From IMG/VR virus record IMGVR_UViG_3300037156_000055: a stretch of DNA of 20,000 nt; one strand, written 5' to 3'. Below are positions 3,316 through 17,811 of this stretch, piece by piece (the first letter of the stretch is position 1; each line of letters opens with the position of its first letter). The stretch comes from an uncultured virus (IMG/VR IMGVR_UViG_3300037156_000055) (Duplodnaviria; Heunggongvirae; Uroviricota; Caudoviricetes). The position numbers and the translations under genes are program-made. A model generated the notes under the pieces. It was not told where the DNA came from, searched no databases, and saw only the letters and a list, made by a program, of their open reading frames with translations.

Positions 3316-3403
3316 GTGATATCTTATTGCATCCGTTGTGGCGACGAAAAGAACTCGCCCCACCGGCACCCAATACTGCTGGCATTGCTTAAAGGGCAAA
3401 TAA
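3316..3403 (+). pseudogene. zinc-ribbon microprotein split across a +1 frame change
   Basis: GGAGG RBS and GTG start give MISYCIRCGDEKNSP; the +1 frame continues TGTQYCWHCLKGK*. Confidence 0.35.
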
Positions 3404-3404
3404 G

Positions 3405-3510
3405 GCCCTAGGACGAGTTCGTGCCCCTCCGGGGGTACAATTCCCTATCCCACTACCTAACGTCGCTCACAGAGGCCAGGAATGGCCTTTCTGGGCATCC
3501 TAGAGAGAAT
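3405..3510 (+). repeat. 106-bp dispersed element, copy A (inverted relative to copy B)
   Basis: Gapless alignment to the reverse complement of 8523-8628; 67/106 identical by manual count, including a 15-bp and an 11-bp exact block. Confidence 0.85.
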
Positions 3511-4319: not shown

Positions 4320-4465
4320 CTGACAAGCTCAATGAAGAATTGCGGGCAGACCTCAAGAAGCTCCCTGAAGTAGAACTAGAACATGACGCAGGTAACGTAC
4401 ACATAGACTTGGATATTAAACCTGCTACCGAGTCAATCCAAGTGAAAGCGACTATCAAGCTATGA
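4316..4465 (+). CDS. small hypothetical protein (49 aa, MTDKLNEELRADL...)
   Basis: Manual translation; GAAAGG RBS; ATGA overlaps at both ends. Confidence 0.65.
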   Translation: MTDKLNEELRADLKKLPEVELEHDAGNVHIDLDIKPATESIQVKATIKL

Positions 4466-5238
4466 ACTTTGAAGAATACCTCGACTTCCTAACGGAGTCG
4501 AATATGAGCATCCACACCATTAACGACTACCGCAGTACATACAAGCGGTTCTTTGCTCATGGTAGTATGAATGAAGGACACATTCGTTCATTCCTAATGA
4601 TTGCTAAGAGTGCAACTACTAAGCGCAAGTACATCGTTCAGTTGAAGAGTCTGTGCAACTTCTTCAACACCAAGATTGACTGGAAGAAAATCCCCTCACC
4701 CAAAGTTAGACAAGAAGCTCCTCTCACGCTTACAGAACAGCATGAACGTCGAATCTATGACTACATGGAATACCGGGATCACAAGAGTGCGAAGATGTTC
4801 TCGTTTCTCTTAGAGACTGGCCTGCGTATCTCTGAATTAGAAGGACTCGGCCCCGATCACTACAAGAAGGTAGAGACTGCGGCGGGCAAGTTCTACCACG
4901 CTCTAAAGATCGACACAAGTATGGATACCCATAGTATCAATGGCCGGTGGGTGCCATTGTCAGTCACCGCCCGGCACATCATCGAGGAATTCGGGCTACC
5001 ATTCAACATCGACCGACGCAGGTTCAACGATCTACTTATCTCAGCACGTACATCACTCAAGTTGCCTGACTACAAAATCCATTCACTACGCAAAACTTTT
5101 ATGTCTCGCTGCCTCAAACGCAAGATGGACGTAGTAACGATTGCCAACATAATGGGACATAAGCAAGTAAACACGATGTTGGTATATGCTGATAGAGAAC
5201 TCGAAACGGTCTGTGACGCCTTCAACGAGGCAGCATAA
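4462..5238 (+). CDS. tyrosine recombinase (XerC/D-like, no arm-binding domain)
   Basis: Catalytic motifs TGLRISEL (R), HSLR (HxxR), MGH (H) and TMLVY (Y); N-terminal core-binding helices (SIHTINDY); 258 aa. Confidence 0.92.
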   Translation: MNFEEYLDFLTESNMSIHTINDYRSTYKRFFAHGSMNEGHIRSFLMIAKSATTKRKYIVQLKSLCNFFNTKIDWKKIPSPKVRQEAPLTLTEQHERRIYDYMEYRDHKSAKMFSFLLETGLRISELEGLGPDHYKKVETAAGKFYHALKIDTSMDTHSINGRWVPLSVTARHIIEEFGLPFNIDRRRFNDLLISARTSLKLPDYKIHSLRKTFMSRCLKRKMDVVTIANIMGHKQVNTMLVYADRELETVCDAFNEAA

Positions 5239-5305
5239 AATAAATGTCATATAACAAATTAGGCCAACCTCAAAACGAGCATTGTTCCTTATGTGAGGTA
5301 GTAAA

Positions 5306-5596
5306 ATGAAGGCGTTGTCGTGCCCCGAGTGCCATAAGATATATGGCCCCTCCGTTACCGAGTGCCGCATGTGCAACTATTTCGCTGACGCACGCAAGCA
5401 GAAGCACGATGATGGATTCTTCACAATGAAACTTCACCGATCAGATGCGGAGGCCGTTCAGCGTGCGCTCTATCTCATGCGCGAGAAGCCGGTTTGGGAG
5501 CGAGCGTCGTCGGTCGTTGAGGGCTGGCTCGGGATAGAATCCACATTCGAGCGGATCATCCACGCGGCCAAATGCGCGTTCGAGGTTAAAGCGTGA
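5306..5596 (+). CDS. hypothetical protein with N-terminal zinc ribbon
   Basis: CPEC...CRMC; GAGGT RBS. Confidence 0.75.
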   Translation: MKALSCPECHKIYGPSVTECRMCNYFADARKQKHDDGFFTMKLHRSDAEAVQRALYLMREKPVWERASSVVEGWLGIESTFERIIHAAKCAFEVKA

Positions 5597-5649
5597 AAGA
5601 ACGATACGATTACAATGCCATACAGTTGGCATACTGAAAGGAAATAATC

Positions 5650-5889
5650 ATGGCGAGGATCAGCCTCTACTCTCAGTACTGCGCCGAACAGCGGCAACGT
5701 AAAATCACCAATGCCCAACGCGCAGGCAATGTCTTCTGGACCTTAGGAGCTATGCTTACAGGTCAGATCAAATCAGGACACGGTGACGGTGGCTTTGGTG
5801 GCCTTCATAACCCAATGAGCTACAGCACCTTCCTCTTCATATTCGTCATCGCTCCGATCCTGATTTTCATTACATTAGTATTGCACTAA
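5650..5889 (+). CDS. hypothetical membrane protein
   Basis: AAGGA RBS; C-terminal hydrophobic helix FLFIFVIAPILIFITLVL. Confidence 0.7.
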   Translation: MARISLYSQYCAEQRQRKITNAQRAGNVFWTLGAMLTGQIKSGHGDGGFGGLHNPMSYSTFLFIFVIAPILIFITLVLH

Positions 5890-5910
5890 GTGTTTGGAAG
5901 TCTTTACAAT
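5881..5910 (+). promoter_or_regulatory. sigma70-like promoter (TTGCAC-N18-TACAAT)
   Basis: -35 at 5881-5886 and -10 at 5905-5910; predicted TSS ~5916 coincides with the start of the structured region. Confidence 0.6.
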
Positions 5911-5915
5911 GAGTG

Positions 5916-6302
5916 GTTGAATGCAGACAGGGGAACTTAAGTAGATGAACTAACTTGCCAAAATGCCGGTAAAAGGAATTGCTGGCATTGCGAATGACCT
6001 CGTTATGAGGACGTTCTTCTTAGGCTATTCGCCTAGAGGTTGGTCTGCTTTGGTGGATTTTTCTGTAGATCAAGTATGTCTTTACAAATTACTGCACGTT
6101 CGGATATTTGACTTCCTTGCCGTCAATCGCAAACCGGGGGCAATCATTTATTGGGAGCCCATTGAACTTGATCCGCGTGAGGCGTGGATACCTGAGGACC
6201 CAATGGAAGTCGAACTCACGGAACTGCGAGTATTACGCCTCGCACGAATAGCATGAAGCAAAATGAGCCGCCCTTTAGCAGGCGGCTTTCATTTCTTTTT
6301 TT
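5916..6302 (+). ncRNA. unassigned ~385-nt structured ncRNA
   Basis: At least 10 helices found by eye, a 5'-3' closing stem, an upstream promoter and a downstream terminator (see findings). Confidence 0.65.
6261..6302 (+). terminator. Rho-independent terminator
   Basis: AAATGA-GCCGCC-loop-GGCGGC-TT-TCATTT hairpin followed by T7 at 6296-6302. Confidence 0.85.
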
Positions 6303-6320
6303 GAAAGTAAGTAACACATA

Positions 6321-6572
6321 ATGCGTCCACTTATACTAGGCGATGAAGATCGCGCCGACCTGCTATTTGCAGTCAGGCGCTATCAGGAATGGAATGATGA
6401 CGAGAACTTCGGTAAGATTGTAGACGAAGTTGAACGCATTGCTGAGAAACATGCGGCTGCACAACATAGGCAAACGTCAACGCATGGACTAGGTGCATGT
6501 ACGTGCGTTAAGTTCGGGGCCGCTGGAAATGGCCTTTGGGATTCTAGTGGTTGCGGAGTACACGGAGACTAA
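6321..6572 (+). CDS. hypothetical protein
   Basis: 83-aa ORF with C-terminal HxxxxCxC...CxxH; abuts the next gene. Confidence 0.7.
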   Translation: MRPLILGDEDRADLLFAVRRYQEWNDDENFGKIVDEVERIAEKHAAAQHRQTSTHGLGACTCVKFGAAGNGLWDSSGCGVHGD

Positions 6573-6962
6573 ATGGAGATAGGATCGAAACATTTACGCG
6601 GGTTTGACTATGCAAGGCTAGGATCACAACGATCAGACTTCCCTGCAACACGTAAATGTGTGGGGGCAGCTTATGTTGATGGCCCGCGAATTATTATTGC
6701 ATCCAACATGCTAAAGACGGCCCCAATAGCAAAGCGTTACGGCAGCATTTACGAACGCATCCATGCGGAGATGAATTGCCTCCAAGGGATCGATGATCCC
6801 TCTGGCGGCGAACTCTATGTATACCGAGAAACGGCTAATGGAAATACCGCTATGGCTCGCCCATGTGAATTCTGCATGAAGCTACTAATAGAACGTGGTT
6901 GTCGCCACGTATATTTCACTACCAACACAGGGTACGAATACCTTGACACACGGAGTCTCTAA
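6573..6962 (+). CDS. cytidine/deoxycytidylate deaminase-family Zn-binding protein
   Basis: VGAA, HAE and PCxxC (IHAEMNCL...ARPCEFC) signature motifs. Confidence 0.88.
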   Translation: MEIGSKHLRGFDYARLGSQRSDFPATRKCVGAAYVDGPRIIIASNMLKTAPIAKRYGSIYERIHAEMNCLQGIDDPSGGELYVYRETANGNTAMARPCEFCMKLLIERGCRHVYFTTNTGYEYLDTRSL

Positions 6963-7168
6963 TGTTTGAAGGTTTGTTTAGCGATGAGCAACTTGATAAG
7001 GTTCTCAAGGCAGTACACAACGAGATTGATCCAGTTCCGCTAGAAGATCACCGGCGCTACATCAAGCACCTATTCACGACGGCCGAACCAAACTCATATG
7101 AAGAAATGATGATGTCGGCCATACTTGAAAACTACAACAAAGCTTTGAAAGACGCAGGGATACAATGA
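6962..7168 (+). CDS. hypothetical protein
   Basis: 68-aa ORF, GGAG RBS, TAATG coupling. Confidence 0.7.
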   Translation: MFEGLFSDEQLDKVLKAVHNEIDPVPLEDHRRYIKHLFTTAEPNSYEEMMMSAILENYNKALKDAGIQ

Positions 7169-7257
7169 AGACTCTATCCGTAGCGACTAAGATTCGCTGC
7201 TACACATTCTCTCTAGTAAATCACAAACTTCATCTTACCTATGTGGAGAACAAATGA
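7165..7257 (+). CDS. small hypothetical protein (30 aa)
   Basis: ATGA overlaps at both ends; manual translation. Confidence 0.45.
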   Translation: MKTLSVATKIRCYTFSLVNHKLHLTYVENK

Positions 7258-7547
7258 CTCTGCAGCGATACACAATCAACCATGACGAAGAATACCCTGA
7301 TAACAACGGAGAACACGTTCGCTGGAAAGATTTTGAAGAACAACAAGAAGTCTTTGCGGCAGTAATCAACGTTATCAACCAATTCGCAAACGGGGAAGCG
7401 GCAGTAGACGTAGACGAAGAAGAACAATCCGAAGTGGCCCGTGTATTTCAGTTAGCTATTATAAACGTGCAACAAGCGCAAGATCGTCTAGCATCTAAAC
7501 GGATGCTAGAGAAAGTGATGGAGATTCGTGAGTCCAAAGATCGGTGA
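7254..7547 (+). CDS. hypothetical protein
   Basis: 97-aa ORF, GGAG RBS. Confidence 0.75.
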   Translation: MTLQRYTINHDEEYPDNNGEHVRWKDFEEQQEVFAAVINVINQFANGEAAVDVDEEEQSEVARVFQLAIINVQQAQDRLASKRMLEKVMEIRESKDR

Positions 7548-7653
7548 TTGCCCATGCGGGCATCACGCTAGTAATCACCAATGGCGCAGGGTAGGAGATA
7601 CAACGTATTGTCCATGTACCAAATGCAATTGCTCGAACTTTAAGAAAGTATAA
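7528..7653 (+). CDS. zinc-finger microprotein (MSPKIGDCPCGHHASNH...CPCTKCNC)
   Basis: Manual translation; GGAG plus GTG start; CxCGHxxxxH...CxxCxC pattern. Confidence 0.6.
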   Translation: MSPKIGDCPCGHHASNHQWRRVGDTTYCPCTKCNCSNFKKV

Positions 7654-8411: not shown

Positions 8412-8593
8412 TGACCCCTGACTGGGATAAGATCGTCAAAGAGGCTGACGAAGGCAGCATCCAGATGAGGAAGCTCCTCACAGCGGTGTTCGGGCCACCT
8501 AGTGAAACAGTGCAGGTAAAGTATGCCCTCTACGATGCCCAGAATGCTCCTTCTAAGCCTCCAGGAGCCACGATAGGTACCTCAGGGGTATAA
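8411..8593 (+). CDS. hypothetical protein (3' part overlaps repeat copy B)
   Basis: 60-aa ORF, AGGA RBS, TAATG coupling. Confidence 0.55.
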   Translation: MTPDWDKIVKEADEGSIQMRKLLTAVFGPPSETVQVKYALYDAQNAPSKPPGATIGTSGV

Positions 8594-8628
8594 TGTACCA
8601 TAAATGCTACCTTAACTCGTCCTAGGGC
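8523..8628 (-). repeat. 106-bp dispersed element, copy B
   Basis: Reverse complement aligns without gaps to 3405-3510. Confidence 0.85.
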
Positions 8629-8736
8629 TCTAAAGTAGCATATTTGATACGTTATATCGACTAGTGCCAGTATTCTATCGGAATAAGACTCCGATAACTC
8701 CGTGTCAGATAAACACCACAGTTTTCTGACATCCTT

Positions 8737-8775
8737 GCCGGGATAGCTCAGTTGGCAGAGTGCCTGCGGTGAATA
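8737..8775 (+). pseudogene. tRNA 5'-half (acceptor 5' strand plus D-arm) with no T-arm or 3' acceptor strand
   Basis: GCCGGGA-TA-GCTC-AGTTGGCA-GAGT-G matches tRNA positions 1-26; no TTCRA loop or TCCCGGC follows. Confidence 0.6.
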
Positions 8776-8807
8776 AACCCCTAATCTCCGCATATCATGC
8801 GGACAAT

Positions 8808-8834
8808 AAAAAAAGAGCCCTCTTTCGAGGGCTC
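8808..8834 (-). terminator. Rho-independent terminator for the - strand block
   Basis: Perfect 8-bp stem GAGCCCTC/GAGGGCTC, GAAA loop on the - strand, then T7 (A7 on + at 8808-8814). Confidence 0.85.
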
Positions 8835-11214: not shown

Positions 11215-11404
11215 ACAACCTCGGGAGTTGGACGGTGTTGAGAACACCGCACACATTACAGTAGTGCGGGATCGTAGATGTATCTGCTGCGTCCATGTGA
11301 TGTTCTTTGAAGAATTCTGTTCGTGCCGCCGTAGCGTCTAACGCATGGGCATTCCACAGATGCTGAACGAAGGCGTTAATCACGCCCTCGATTGTTGTTA
11401 CCAT
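11195..11404 (-). CDS. hypothetical protein
   Basis: GGAGG RBS and TAATG coupling support a start at 11404. Confidence 0.65.
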   Translation of the reverse strand: MVTTIEGVINAFVQHLWNAHALDATAARTEFFKEHHMDAADTSTIPHYCNVCGVLNTVQLPRLYERTRG

Positions 11405-11601
11405 TACCCCTCCGGCCACGGCTTAACGTGAGACAGACCTTTAATTTTTAGAAACTCGGTTGTCCGTTCGTTAATGCCGTAGCATTCAGTATCGCTGCCT
11501 ACAACGATTGACGGGCTGCAAGATGTTAACCACGCAGCAAATCCAATCACTGCTTCTACTGTTAGTTGATTCTGTTCTACTTTAGTTGCTCGCATTTTCA
11601 T
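11404..11601 (-). CDS. hypothetical protein
   Basis: 65-aa ORF in the operon. Confidence 0.65.
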   Translation of the reverse strand: MKMRATKVEQNQLTVEAVIGFAAWLTSCSPSIVVGSDTECYGINERTTEFLKIKGLSHVKPWPEG

Positions 11602-12617: not shown

Positions 12618-13903
12618 GATTGCAGTACCTTATCTCCGAAGATCGCTTCACCGTTAGCAATCGGATGGCTAACGACTTTGAATACATCGTCGTTCAGAAT
12701 GTCTACTGTAGCTACGCCTTGCTGCCAGTTCATCCGTGTACCGTCACTTGGTACCTGTGAGCGTACTAACGGTTGGGGTTCTGCAATGTCATCGACATGC
12801 ATAAGTCCTGGTACGGAATGAATGCTATACGTTTCGATTCCGTCGATGTAGTGGACGGATCGTGACTCAACGCGGTAGTGGGGCGTGTGTCCGTGGATGA
12901 CGGATGCACGTAAGTCCTTCTTACCGGGAGGTTGGTGGGTGCATACGAGCTTCGGCGTGAGCCAGAACTGCCCGCTGGGATATGTTGCGCTGTAGTTTAT
13001 TCCAAGCTCTTGAAGTAGCAGTAGATTGGGTACAGATAAAACAGGCCAAGCACCAGGCACACTAGCAGCACGACGAAGACCGTAAGCGGCCAGAGCATTG
13101 CGAGCAATATACTCAGACATCCGACGTTCATGATTCCCCTCAATGTATTCTATCTGACAGTTAGGTCCAACAATGCTGCGTACCTGACAGAGCAGTTCAT
13201 ATGCGTATTCGATTGCAGGCTGCAGGGTTAGCTGAAACTCAGCCACCTGCAGATACTTACTAAGACTAGGTAAGTCCAAAAAGTCTCCAAGAATCACTAC
13301 CGTATCTGGCTTGTATATTTTGAGCATCTGTAGCATAACTGCGATAGCCCGTGTATCGTGGAATGGAGTTAGCTCCATCGTATTGATGTCGCGGTAGTAT
13401 CCGATCTGGGCATCCGGTATGATGAACACCCGCTTCGCAAAGACAGATTTGACCGGGCCTGCACCTGTGATATATTTGACATTCTTTGGTGCTGGCTGCT
13501 GGATGACCGGCCATGCTGGACCCTCTTCAAACTTCGGAGAGAATTGAATCTGCACACTACGCCGATCACGCTTCATCGGCATCTTAACGCCCTCTTTTTG
13601 GGCGTTCTTATACATGCTATCCCATGTGCCTTTGTCAGTCTTGACTGTGGCCTGCTTGATGTTGATCTGGCGCGGGTCAATGCCCCGTGCTTCCAACTCT
13701 TCCATCAAGAATGTAATGGCAGTTTCTTTATCTTTGTCGTTTACATACGTTGGATCAGTGATTAGTCGAATGCGTTTTTGGAACGTAGACGGCCCGCAAC
13801 CAACTTCACGGCTAGCTTTCTCTGCGTTCTTATCATGCTTTTCGTAGAGGTCTAAGACCTCGGAGTCGCTGTATTGGCTTAATGCTCGTTTTTCAACTGG
13901 CAT
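12611..13903 (-). CDS. calcineurin-like metallophosphoesterase with N-terminal HTH-like extension
   Basis: IPDAQ, LGDFLD, EGNHE, H, HGHTPH motifs; N-terminal NAEKASREVGCGPSTFQKRI resembles an HTH. Confidence 0.85.
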   Translation of the reverse strand: MPVEKRALSQYSDSEVLDLYEKHDKNAEKASREVGCGPSTFQKRIRLITDPTYVNDKDKETAITFLMEELEARGIDPRQINIKQATVKTDKGTWDSMYKNAQKEGVKMPMKRDRRSVQIQFSPKFEEGPAWPVIQQPAPKNVKYITGAGPVKSVFAKRVFIIPDAQIGYYRDINTMELTPFHDTRAIAVMLQMLKIYKPDTVVILGDFLDLPSLSKYLQVAEFQLTLQPAIEYAYELLCQVRSIVGPNCQIEYIEGNHERRMSEYIARNALAAYGLRRAASVPGAWPVLSVPNLLLLQELGINYSATYPSGQFWLTPKLVCTHQPPGKKDLRASVIHGHTPHYRVESRSVHYIDGIETYSIHSVPGLMHVDDIAEPQPLVRSQVPSDGTRMNWQQGVATVDILNDDVFKVVSHPIANGEAIFGDKVLQSW

Positions 13904-14303: not shown

Positions 14304-14836
14304 CGTTGCGCGGGGATGAAATACTCCGGCCCGCTGAACTTGCGTGTGTGAGTATGAGTATCAAACTTATACGCAGGTTCTGTTACTGGTTCTTTGGGTG
14401 ACTCTAACCAATCACTCATCTTGTTGTAGCTGGCCTTGAGTCCGAACAGTACAGCTTGCTTTGTGCAGCCGTCCTGATTACCAATCTCTTCAAGTGTGTA
14501 CCCTTCGTTGTGGTACCGCATGAGGCGAGAGATAGCAGTCTCTGTTAGCTGCTCCATTGCTTTATGAATGTCGCAGATGATACTACTAAGGTCATCGATC
14601 TTGTATGCTGTATTCGTCCTGCGTGAAGCTCTAGGGATCATTGAGGCGAAGTCTTGTGCCGCCACAACCTTCTCTATAGATACGTGTGACCGTTGAGAGA
14701 CATTGATACTCATAGTCCCTGAGTCACGGGCTGATTCAATCTGAGGCCAGCACTCGAAGATTTTTTCGACTATCTCTGGCGAGTACGGATGATCTAATGC
14801 GCTTAGGATGTTGCACCTGTAAAGTCCACGACACAC
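14300..14836 (-). CDS. sigma-70 region-4-like HTH DNA-binding protein
   Basis: DIHKAMEQLT...EGYTLEEIGNQDGCTKQAV pattern; start codon uncertain. Confidence 0.7.
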   Translation of the reverse strand: MCRGLYRCNILSALDHPYSPEIVEKIFECWPQIESARDSGTMSINVSQRSHVSIEKVVAAQDFASMIPRASRRTNTAYKIDDLSSIICDIHKAMEQLTETAISRLMRYHNEGYTLEEIGNQDGCTKQAVLFGLKASYNKMSDWLESPKEPVTEPAYKFDTHTHTRKFSGPEYFIPAQR

Positions 14837-17811
14837 GTATCATTGGTGCAGCCCCGCTCTGGCGTAGCTTCTTCTGATAGGCCCGTTAGATTGAGTGGTA
14901 ATAGAGAAGCCATCGCACAGCGATACCACTTCTCGGTACATTCTTCGTATGGCATCTGTGGGTATGCACCAGCTTTCACCTTAGGTAGTAGGCTGATACC
15001 CTTTAATTGGTATTGGTAGTGGTTAAGGCAGGCTGCAATCTCGTCTGCTCCCACCAATCCTGGATCAAAAGTGACGGTACATGAAACTTGATTGTCGGCC
15101 CAGTATCGCTGGAGGAAAGCAGCCATGGCAAACTGTTCCCATATACTAACTTCAGAGACTGTTCTAATGCTGTCATTAAGAGCTACGTAGAACTCAACAA
15201 CGACCGAGGAAGAGTCCCCAACGCAATCCTCGACAATGTAATTAGCTGATCTAAATCGTTCAACATACGGGGAAGCATTACTGAGTCGAACGCGCCTAAT
15301 GTAGTACCGTGATTCGGGCCAGTGCATACCGGGAGTCGCCCCAGCAAGGAGCGACACTGTTCCAGACGGTTTAATACTTGTCGTCTTAACTGACATCGGC
15401 ACAGCGAACCATTCGCTGTACTTTCGGTCAACGTATTGGATGTAGTCGTATCCACTCTCGCACCATTCTTTTAGTGTGTGAAGCCCATGCTTTGCGACAA
15501 ACTGCTGGATGCCCGACATACTCGTACCGATGCGTCGGTTACGAAGTAGTACCTTATTCGTCTTAGGCCAGTGTGTCTTGCCAAGCGTGACTGTTTTAGC
15601 GTAAAGATAGGCGAACTTAAGGGTTCTCCGGTAATCAGTGAGGTCAGTACAGTTGCTTGGAAATGTTTCAACCAAGTTGCACAGTTCGAAGTGTTCCAGA
15701 GACTGTTCAGCACAATTGCTAACGTTGAGTCCTCCAGTCCAGTACGTGTGTTCCTCACTATTAACGGTGATGTCATAGACTTCCATATCTCCGAGATATT
15801 CAGTTTCGATAATCTGATATGTTTTCTTAGTATTACTACGCGCTAACGGCGATTTACCAGTCATAGCAATAGCCGTCTTCAATCGTTCTTTTTTGTAAAC
15901 TTGAATAAATCCGATGAGCTTAGCGAAACGCTCGCGATCAACAGTGATATTGATATCGTAGCTTTCTTTGCACGTATACACACCGTTACTGAATTCAACG
16001 TCCTTAGACTTGTTTGTCGTAAAGTACGAACGAATACCAAGGGCACTTAGAAGCAACTGAACTTGTTCACGCAGTTTGCGTGACACAAGTTTCAATGTGA
16101 CTCGATTGCCACACACGCTTCCGTTAGCTGAATATAAACCACGCAAGAAGCCAGCAGACGCAGCATCTCCCCGCATGTATCGATCTGGAATACGTCGTTC
16201 ATTAATATGACCGACTTCATCCCTTGTCAGGGTAGTGTTAACAAAGTGGGTTGTACCACTAGAAAATTCTCCGATTAGATGTTTGACTTCACTCCAAAAA
16301 TAGTCGCTATCATTCTCGCCAATGCAGAGATAGACAGATGACCGTTCATTATGAGTTCCATCACCGAGAACCAGACCATCTAAGATAGATTGAGGATGAA
16401 GCTCAAAGCTATCGATATATTCTCCAGGAAGAATATCTATTGACTCAGCTTGACATACTTCTACTTTCTGCCCTTCCGATATAATGCGGTGATTCTCTGT
16501 ACCATAGAAGGTGCCAGCGTTCGTAGTATAGCGGTATACCGGCTTAACGCCTGTACTCCACTTCTTAGTAACGCGAGTCCATCCTGATTCAGTCCAGATT
16601 AGTTGACCAGTCTTGATTTCTCCCATGGTAATGATTCCGCGTTCACCAAGTAATGGTGCGAACGCAGGCTGGCAAGGGTTAGCGCCTCTAACTCTTTTGT
16701 CTTTGTGGTTTGCGGGTTCTTCCATTCGACCATAGGCTTTTGCATTCTCCAACCACATATATCCAGGCTCACCATTACCGTGAGTCTTAGTTGCTACATG
16801 ACGATAGTCCATACCAATGTCTGCGAAGATGGAATTGTTACTTGTCCATCCATGTGCTGCACGATCTTTTTGTGGTCCCTCGAAGTGCCCCGGAGTGACT
16901 TCTGTTTCACCGTCAGTCATCCAAACACGTTCAGGTACCCAATAATAGTTCTTGAGGTTGATGTACTCTTCACTATCGTATGGCCCGAAGACGATTTCGG
17001 CGGTTCGTCGAACGTTCCCCGACACGACGCAGCAACCAATGAGGTTCATGATGTCTACGATGTCTGTCTCGGTTAGATATTGACCATCACGATTATCAAG
17101 TAGTTTCCGAATCTTGTCGTGCATTTCCATCAGTGGTTCGGGGCCACTTGACGTGCCGCCGAAGCCTTTGATCGGTAAGTCTTTCTCTCGGATAGATCGG
17201 TAGTCAAATATCCACTGGGCAGACCCAGTGAAGTACCCATCTAGAAGGCGGCGTAGGGACTCTACCCAGCCTTCGCGGTCGTCAGTGATGGTATAATACC
17301 CTAGCTGGTCACTCCGCCTCACCTGGAGCTTCCCAGCCCCCTTTACGTCGAAGCCTACACCGATGCCAACCATACTTGCATCCATGAGGAACGTGAATGG
17401 CTCAGTAGTCTCCTTGTCAATGAACTCAGTACTCACGAAGCCGCAATTGTTCAAGGCAGCATAGAGATGCCGTTCCTCAGTGAGAGGTGATCCCATAGCC
17501 CACATACCTCGCCCTGGTGGAAGGAATTTCATGTGGAACATGCGGTCATACATTTCTTTGGCGCTCTTCTGTGCCCGAGCATCAGACCAACCTAAGTCTT
17601 GTTCCTTGATATGACGCTCTTGCATCCGGTACGTACCTTCAACCACTCGGCGAACAGTCTCATACCAGACCTCGTTAGTACCATCCGTTTTAATTCGGGA
17701 GTAAGTGCGGAGATATACGAACTCTCCAAGTCCGTTGAATCCAAAGGGCGGGGTAATATTTTTGTACTTGGAAATGAAAGAGTCGGGTAACCTGAATGTT
17801 GCATCGATCAA
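14803..17811 (-). CDS. nrdJ: class II (adenosylcobalamin-dependent) ribonucleotide reductase, RTPR type, intein-containing
   Basis: RTYSR, FLPPGRG, NNCGF, GNVRRTAEI, NP-[intein]-CAEQ, ELCNL, IKPSGTVS, C-terminal CxxxxC; 682 aa after splicing. Confidence 0.93.
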   Translation of the reverse strand: MIDATFRLPDSFISKYKNITPPFGFNGLGEFVYLRTYSRIKTDGTNEVWYETVRRVVEGTYRMQERHIKEQDLGWSDARAQKSAKEMYDRMFHMKFLPPGRGMWAMGSPLTEERHLYAALNNCGFVSTEFIDKETTEPFTFLMDASMVGIGVGFDVKGAGKLQVRRSDQLGYYTITDDREGWVESLRRLLDGYFTGSAQWIFDYRSIREKDLPIKGFGGTSSGPEPLMEMHDKIRKLLDNRDGQYLTETDIVDIMNLIGCCVVSGNVRRTAEIVFGPYDSEEYINLKNYYWVPERVWMTDGETEVTPGHFEGPQKDRAAHGWTSNNSIFADIGMDYRHVATKTHGNGEPGYMWLENAKAYGRMEEPANHKDKRVRGANPCQPAFAPLLGERGIITMGEIKTGQLIWTESGWTRVTKKWSTGVKPVYRYTTNAGTFYGTENHRIISEGQKVEVCQAESIDILPGEYIDSFELHPQSILDGLVLGDGTHNERSSVYLCIGENDSDYFWSEVKHLIGEFSSGTTHFVNTTLTRDEVGHINERRIPDRYMRGDAASAGFLRGLYSANGSVCGNRVTLKLVSRKLREQVQLLLSALGIRSYFTTNKSKDVEFSNGVYTCKESYDINITVDRERFAKLIGFIQVYKKERLKTAIAMTGKSPLARSNTKKTYQIIETEYLGDMEVYDITVNSEEHTYWTGGLNVSNCAEQSLEHFELCNLVETFPSNCTDLTDYRRTLKFAYLYAKTVTLGKTHWPKTNKVLLRNRRIGTSMSGIQQFVAKHGLHTLKEWCESGYDYIQYVDRKYSEWFAVPMSVKTTSIKPSGTVSLLAGATPGMHWPESRYYIRRVRLSNASPYVERFRSANYIVEDCVGDSSSVVVEFYVALNDSIRTVSEVSIWEQFAMAAFLQRYWADNQVSCTVTFDPGLVGADEIAACLNHYQYQLKGISLLPKVKAGAYPQMPYEECTEKWYRCAMASLLPLNLTGLSEEATPERGCTNDTCVVDFTGATS
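15715..16674 (-). mobile_element. intein (320 aa) with LAGLIDADG-type homing endonuclease domain
   Basis: Starts at Cys (GANP|CQPA), block B TENH, motifs LDGLVLGDG and FLRGLYSANG, block F VYDITV, ends VSN|C. Confidence 0.93.

Follow-up and report, generated by a model that had tools for sequence, protein, structure and literature searches.

A small conserved phage gene and a predicted 5′ leader fold that buries its ribosome-binding site

Described translational locks and the phage unit

The closest described counterpart of the leader reported here is the 5′ UTR of the MS2 (Levivirus) maturation gene, in which, according to the available excerpts of PMC4615214 (the system is also discussed in PMC6733600), an upstream strand pairs with the Shine-Dalgarno (SD) sequence across three arms and a transient hairpin leaves a short window for translation. 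For the hok and aapA3 mRNAs, the passages of PMC9841398 and PMC6733600 that deal with them describe a short ORF that has its own promoter, is preceded by a locked leader and is followed by a terminator.

We analyzed 20,000 nucleotides of DNA from an uncultured virus (IMG/VR IMGVR_UViG_3300037156_000055), referred to as the window, which is part of a phage genome recorded in peat metagenome runs (6 rows, 3 studies), with no RNA run among those listed. Among the 40 ORFs scanned, the phage genes identified are ParB-like, integrase, dCMP-deaminase-like, class II ribonucleotide reductase, ThyX and MazG genes, and the window also encodes a tRNA-Thr. On its + strand, a unit at 5917-6302 would form a short mRNA made up of a promoter, a 136-nt leader, a 67-codon gene and a terminator.

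The unit shares with the MS2 maturation gene, as the excerpts of PMC4615214 portray it, a leader of similar size, a distant upstream strand that is here predicted to pair with the SD and close three arms, a candidate early structure of another form in which the inhibitory strand could be kept occupied, and the expectation of a small output. It differs in being a DNA phage transcript in which Rfam detected no sequence similarity to the MS2 leader, and in that the predicted lock also covers the start codon and seven codons. With the hok and aapA3 type I toxin mRNAs, as far as the same passages describe them, the unit has in common a short monocistronic message and, as predicted here, an SD that is masked by default and alternative folds as the RNA is made; its lock, however, lies within the 5′ 160 nt whereas theirs forms between the 5′ end and the 3′ end, no antisense RNA was found in the unit, and its product is not a hydrophobic peptide. 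The large phage and bacterial ncRNAs of Rfam 15 (tmRNA, RNase P, introns and riboswitches among them) resemble it in length, multi-helix look and terminator, but none of them matches it at the gathering threshold.

An initial annotation, made from the letters alone, had called a new phage ncRNA at this position. That call proved false, and two modest novelties take its place: a small, unannotated family of proteins whose fold is predicted to be Tudor/SH3-like, and a 160-nt leader predicted to bury the ribosome-binding site (RBS) of its own message. The leader is uncatalogued and probably translation-locking, of a kind already known from the MS2 maturation gene. The annotation's view that the + strand structure is undescribed by Rfam was borne out, as no family reached its gathering score in the unit; over the whole window the single match at that score was a tRNA elsewhere, and at the E-value level the 5914-6302 unit gave weak sub-threshold matches only. 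The literature searched held nothing on this leader or protein; motif lists in paper supplements could hold it.

DNA searches and tblastn found no real homologous DNA of the gene or leader in annotated phages and plasmids, and scans of the collection for either one (14 loci: L001-L012, L021 and L022) yielded no credible match. The family profile matched 0/8 records carrying a related ribonucleotide reductase, a result that shows little. The leader fold is a prediction from one sequence. In contigs from 4 DNA runs, which cover 4400-7600 patchily, no letter differed, so that they offered no natural variation.

The 67-aa gene and its product

A search with the 97-aa ORF that begins at ATG 5963 returned 2 proteins, the ORF itself and P0002, the latter 64% identical over residues 31-97. 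When a profile of these two was run against 1.84 billion representatives, six sequences were retrieved at E <= 0.001, namely the query itself, four further homologues, and P0007, which was dropped as a repetitive low-complexity match. A second profile search returned only the six sequences that had built the profile, and the family is therefore small. The five metagenomic homologues (P0002-P0006), known as gene calls only and encoded on contigs of 1.1-7.3 kb, are 65-102 aa long and 38-66% identical to the window protein. All five have Met opposite GTG 6053, 4/5 end in the same terminal Ala, and the alignment contains an invariant or nearly invariant core, RxxDFxxVNxxPGA...E...VEL.

We simulated neutral divergence of the window DNA to the matching amino-acid identity (4000 simulations) and compared mean BLOSUM scores. 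Substitutions were more conservative than neutral drift in 4/5 homologues, with 17, 6, 6 and 13 of the 4000 simulations reaching the observed value, and were not significantly so in P0005 (295/4000); the test is biased toward the protein reading, because a protein search, by which the homologues were found, preferentially picks up open frames and conservative changes. The ORF has a weak codon-usage signal, at 0.023 per codon versus 0.075-0.161 for five small neighbours, and two other neighbours score much as it does (0.021 and 0.028). The dismissal of the ORF as spurious fits only the first 30 codons (5963-6052), which sit within the structured leader and do look spurious; the last 67 (codons 31-97) are conserved as protein across the five homologues. 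We discarded ATG 5963 as the start of a 97-aa protein, since it has no SD-like sequence and the extension it would add is not conserved. By computation, the frame from GTG 6053 can be shown to be, on comparison of protein sequences, a real gene of a small conserved protein family. It runs from GTG 6053, or from TTG 6050, to 6256 and encodes a 67-aa protein of an unnamed family, and 4 nt separate its stop codon from the terminator, the arrangement of an ordinary gene.

The annotation had further proposed that the whole span folds as one stand-alone ncRNA of ~385 nt. Two thirds of that span is conserved coding sequence with ordinary folding, and the 5917-6302 unit is more likely the mRNA for a small phage protein, without stand-alone ncRNA status. 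All the sequence strings quoted for the proposed helices are present where they had been placed, and the helices can be drawn and are mutually compatible, but the set differs from the equilibrium fold, at -106.1 versus an MFE of -127.0 kcal/mol, i.e., ~21 kcal/mol above it. Pair probability exceeded 0.9 only for the helices 5962/5989, 5998/6010 and 6021/6035 and for the terminator; it was 0.38 for the stem proposed to close the 5′ and 3′ ends (5916-5924/6251-6259) and 0.00 at equilibrium for the helices 5929/6020, 5939/5956 and 6040/6073, and the hairpin 5939-5956 was unable to fold alone. As a whole, 5914-6302 folds better than its dinucleotide shuffles (z -2.90 on the + strand, -2.47 on the - strand), but this excess is confined to 5914-6075, and 6076-6260 is ordinary (z -0.70). 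Against synonymous recodings, the 3′ half gave z -0.84 and -1.41, with 109/500 and 43/500 recodings as good.

From the homologous proteins only, we also determined whether some choice of codons would allow the proposed helices within the ORF to pair. Pairing was impossible in 43/175 pair-by-homologue cells, against a background of 20-28%, and in just 8 cells were both sides forced to change yet pairable. The helix 6107-6116/6205-6214 was mostly possible (6/50 cells impossible). The ncRNA reading fails because codons 31-97 are conserved in the five homologues and the 3′ helices are at background. Conservation of the protein is one part of the outcome that the annotation had itself named as refuting its call.

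None of the 6 members had a match in Pfam. In PHROGs the window protein had no match, and P0005 and P0006 had one each (E 0.0027 and 0.25); the best PDB sequence for the window protein was no better than E 0.9, and the best value from the ESM Atlas, 0.77, is a lead at most. AlphaFold2, run on the 6-row alignment, gave a four-strand barrel with SH3/Tudor-like strand order (pLDDT 77). In a fold search against 48,161 chains, the CarD N-domain came out best, with Z 6.7 and 6.2 and an rmsd of 2.0-2.1 A across 56 residues, which lies below the mark of Z 8 and is tied with other Tudor folds; the rows that follow are the BAHCC1 Tudor domain, DUF1653 and CdnL. Foldseek against PDB and BFVD found nothing at E <= 0.001. 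The top rows of the fold search are Tudor/SH3 folds, and the fold class is therefore Tudor/SH3-like, the 67-aa protein being predicted to be a stand-alone barrel of this kind.

CarD and CdnL (PDB 9e7v_M, 4l5g_A and 2lqk) are the closest structural matches, at 5-9% identity and within 1 Z unit of unrelated Tudor domains, and the modelled CarD link is a lead only, as the match may reflect just a common barrel. The window protein ends at 67 aa and lacks the C-terminal helical domain with its Trp wedge; among 8000 candidates, none was a longer family form, which is weak evidence. According to the available part of bioRxiv 10.64898/2026.02.09.704077, the N-terminal Tudor domain of CarD binds the RNA polymerase beta protrusion. 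Our best guess at the job of the protein, which is still an unlikely one, is that it binds a host protein or nucleic-acid surface, such as the beta protrusion bound by the CarD N-domain. Such a surface-binding role would explain a tight dosing of the protein, and if it bound RNA polymerase as CarD does, it would represent a new route of host takeover.

The structured leader and the predicted burial of the initiation site

The leader at 5917-6073 comprises about 136 untranslated nucleotides and the first 7 codons, and is predicted to fold into a rod that closes a multiloop of three hairpins. Its fold was far better than that of shuffled sequences: for 5914-6075, z was -4.95 on the + strand, with 0/200 shuffles as good, and -2.44 on the - strand. 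In a grid of 245 coding-strand windows anchored on 5914 (mean z -0.64) this stretch ranks 1st, barely ahead of the tRNA/terminator region, and windows shifted to six offsets from 5894 to 5944 gave z -3.0 to -5.2, the signal fading outside. The MFE structure is also the centroid, and 11/58 of its pairs are G-U.

In the 5914-6075 fold, the outer 5′ strands (5917-5927) pair with codons 4-7 at 6062-6067 and 6070-6073 (p 0.81 and 0.99). The strand at 5935-5951, hereafter the anti-RBS strand, pairs with the end of the SD (6038-6041), the spacer (6043-6050) and the start codon (6052-6054) with p 0.93, 0.98 and 0.96, and it remains paired in the full-length ensemble. Between them lie hairpin 1 (5962-5989; 11 bp with an AAGGAA loop, p 0.96), hairpin 2 (5992-6016; 5+4 bp, p 0.99-1.00) and hairpin 3 (6018-6037; core p 0.99), the base of which includes the first SD bases (p 0.53). 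The SD-like AGAGGT at 6035-6040, which we take to be the SD from its consensus, precedes TTG 6050 by 9 nt and GTG 6053 by 12 nt.

Opening the RBS would cost 23.5 kcal/mol for TTG 6050 and 22.0 kcal/mol for GTG 6053, ranks 1 and 3 of 37 starts with a median of 9.0; one other start, at 3482, is equally buried (23.0 kcal/mol). Without the first 38 nt, the cost falls from 22.0 to 13.5 kcal/mol. In full-length and read-through transcripts the lock is kept, with opening energies of 15-18.5 kcal/mol, and an RNA thermometer is not favoured, as 15 kcal/mol would still be needed at 55 C. By computation, then, the predicted fold can be shown to bury the initiation site of the gene, including SD, spacer, start codon and first codons.

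We therefore propose, with a probability of roughly 55%, that the modelled leader fold acts as a translational lock, limiting the 67-aa protein to small amounts. The 5′ leader strands would pair over the SD, spacer, start codon and first codons, closing the three hairpins, and little protein would be made. More tentatively, ribosomes might load chiefly during synthesis, before the lock closes, while the anti-RBS strand is perhaps held in an alternative helix, in the manner of the MS2 maturation leader with its delayed folding. The candidate for this transient state is the helix 5929-5936/6013-6020 of the initial annotation, which encloses the anti-RBS strand and, in a nested fold, excludes the lock. 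It was the MFE structure at 1/10 lengths of the growing transcript, that with its 3′ end at 6037, where the SD emerges; it was missing for ends 6017 and 6042 and from 6051 on, and the lock was established by 6051. Compared with the lock, this state is less favourable by 5-12 kcal/mol; a heuristic estimate puts the barrier at 9-12 kcal/mol, and with the alternative helix in place opening the RBS still costs 10-15 kcal/mol, so that initiation would be easier, not free. We would give such a kinetic window perhaps half the weight that we give the lock itself; if true, it would be a compact example, from a DNA phage, of control by delayed RNA folding.

The intrinsic terminator-like hairpin and U-tract at 6261-6302 is a real terminator-like site (p 0.92), as the initial annotation had it. 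The promoter-like TTGCAC-N18-TACAAT at 5881-5910, which overlaps the end of ORF 5650-5889, did not fare as well, since it matches at 8/12 positions, is missing from the site-scan list and is no commoner than chance (6 sites of this quality in the window versus 6.1 in shuffles). Transcription would start at about 5917, a position for which the sole support is the folded domain beginning there.

Alternative readings and neighbouring features

The same observations can be read without translational control, the unit being an ordinary small phage gene with a 5′ region that folds by chance or only protects the 5′ end. We consider this unlikely, since no window is more extreme than the leader (z near -5), which is equalled only by the tRNA/terminator region, and its fold is strand-asymmetric and G-U-rich, with long-range arms that hit the SD and the start codon. 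What speaks for an ordinary gene is that 8/245 windows reach z <= -3.2, three of them within large genes, that no DNA homologues were found, and that likeness to the leader in the upstream extension of P0005 was no evidence of conservation (174/300 shuffles and 129/284 tiles scored as well). In addition, the promoter is putative, and transcripts of the genes upstream might read through, since no terminator is listed between 5889 and 5917. The 160-nt domain might instead reach beyond a kinetic lock and be a sensing or independently acting RNA, for example a protein- or ligand-binding leader, a target of autoregulation by the Tudor product or of host CsrA, or a dual-function transcript. Three stable hairpins exceed the needs of a lock, two mutually exclusive folds exist, and the unpaired AAGGAA loop of hairpin 1 and an unpaired GGA that the start codon overlaps presumably resemble CsrA sites. 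We find this reading rather unlikely, as there is no Rfam match (RsmX scores 11.6 bits against a cut-off of 56), no internal terminator is listed that would release a separate RNA, and the enrichment in GGA is not significant, with 4 versus 2.1 in the leader (P 0.16) and 10 versus 5.7 overall (P 0.06), 23/386 tiles carrying as many. A CsrB/RsmX/Y/Z sponge was rejected on the same overall count, of which only 3/10 are mostly unpaired.

A type I toxin-antitoxin-like module, in which a toxic 67-aa protein is encoded by an mRNA that has to be processed to become active and the active form is counteracted by an antisense RNA, would account for the order of promoter, locked leader, short ORF and terminator, which fits hok and aapA3 as portrayed in the passages of PMC9841398 and PMC6733600, and the phage carries an integrase-family gene. 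It is nonetheless very unlikely, because the product is modelled as a soluble beta barrel without a membrane helix, unlike a short hydrophobic peptide, a good antisense -10 box is missing from the unit, the closest one being at 6422, 3′ truncation leaves the RBS closed in the model (13.6-17.6 kcal/mol at 8 end points), and no convincing trans partner appeared among 1303 window tiles. Hardly tenable, finally, is the original model of a single 385-nt ncRNA, under which the ORF is spurious and the "homologous proteins" stem from frames wrongly called on a conserved RNA. It can appeal to the whole-region z of -2.9, to the weak codon signal, to the status of the homologues as gene calls and to the 6107-6116/6205-6214 helix, which most homologues could form; but this helix joins conserved FDF and EVE codons that are complementary by the code, the 3′ half is no better folded than shuffles or recodings, the number of impossible cells equals the background, and the homologues share start, stop and conservative substitutions. 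Within the preferred reading, of a locked mRNA for a small protein, one extension would join both of its parts: the protein would be a free-standing mimic of the RNA-polymerase-binding CarD domain that displaces CarD, Mfd or UvrD from the host polymerase, dosed by an MS2-like kinetic leader in a brief burst of translation per transcript. This is improbable; if true, it would be a delayed-folding switch in a DNA phage that controls a new kind of inhibitor of host transcription.

Several other features were noted in the window. Directly upstream of the unit, the last 24 codons of ORF 5650-5889 (5815-5889, + strand), entered at an internal ATG, encode a peptide that is strongly hydrophobic and contains a VIAPI motif, which we take to be that of Fst-type toxins; the peptide has no Pfam match, and the end of its frame overlaps the -35 box of the promoter-like site at 5881-5910. 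A short tyrosine-recombinase gene at 4462-5238 (+ strand, 258 aa) lies among small early-type genes, close to the ParB-like gene, and may encode a resolvase instead of an integrase. A 57-nt inverted pair (3454-3510/8523-8579), 74% complementary and 5 kb apart, flanks a block with the integrase and the 5917-6302 unit. The window 3322-3483 is well folded (z -3.2) and the start at 3482 strongly buried. Well-folding windows also occur inside coding regions on the - strand at 13447-13689 and 11341-11502 (z -4.0, -3.0 and -3.75), and an exact 18-nt direct repeat (193-210/364-381, spacing 171 nt) covers with its first copy the start of ORF 207-659.

Another non-coding stretch that folds, at 8600-8812 on the + strand (z -2.86; windows z -4.2 and -3.4), lies downstream of a TATAAT at 8589-8594 and directly upstream of the tRNA-Thr, and has no Rfam match. 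Within it, 8737-8770 looks like the 5′ half of a tRNA (acceptor strand and D-arm), being 71% like the 5′ end of tRNA-Thr over 34 nt; a matching 3′ half was not found on the same strand of the window, and the stretch is possibly a tRNA-like ncRNA or a decayed tRNA. Lastly, the class II ribonucleotide reductase at 14803-17811 (- strand) is split by a LAGLIDADG-bearing insert at aa about 382-700, which is probably an intein.
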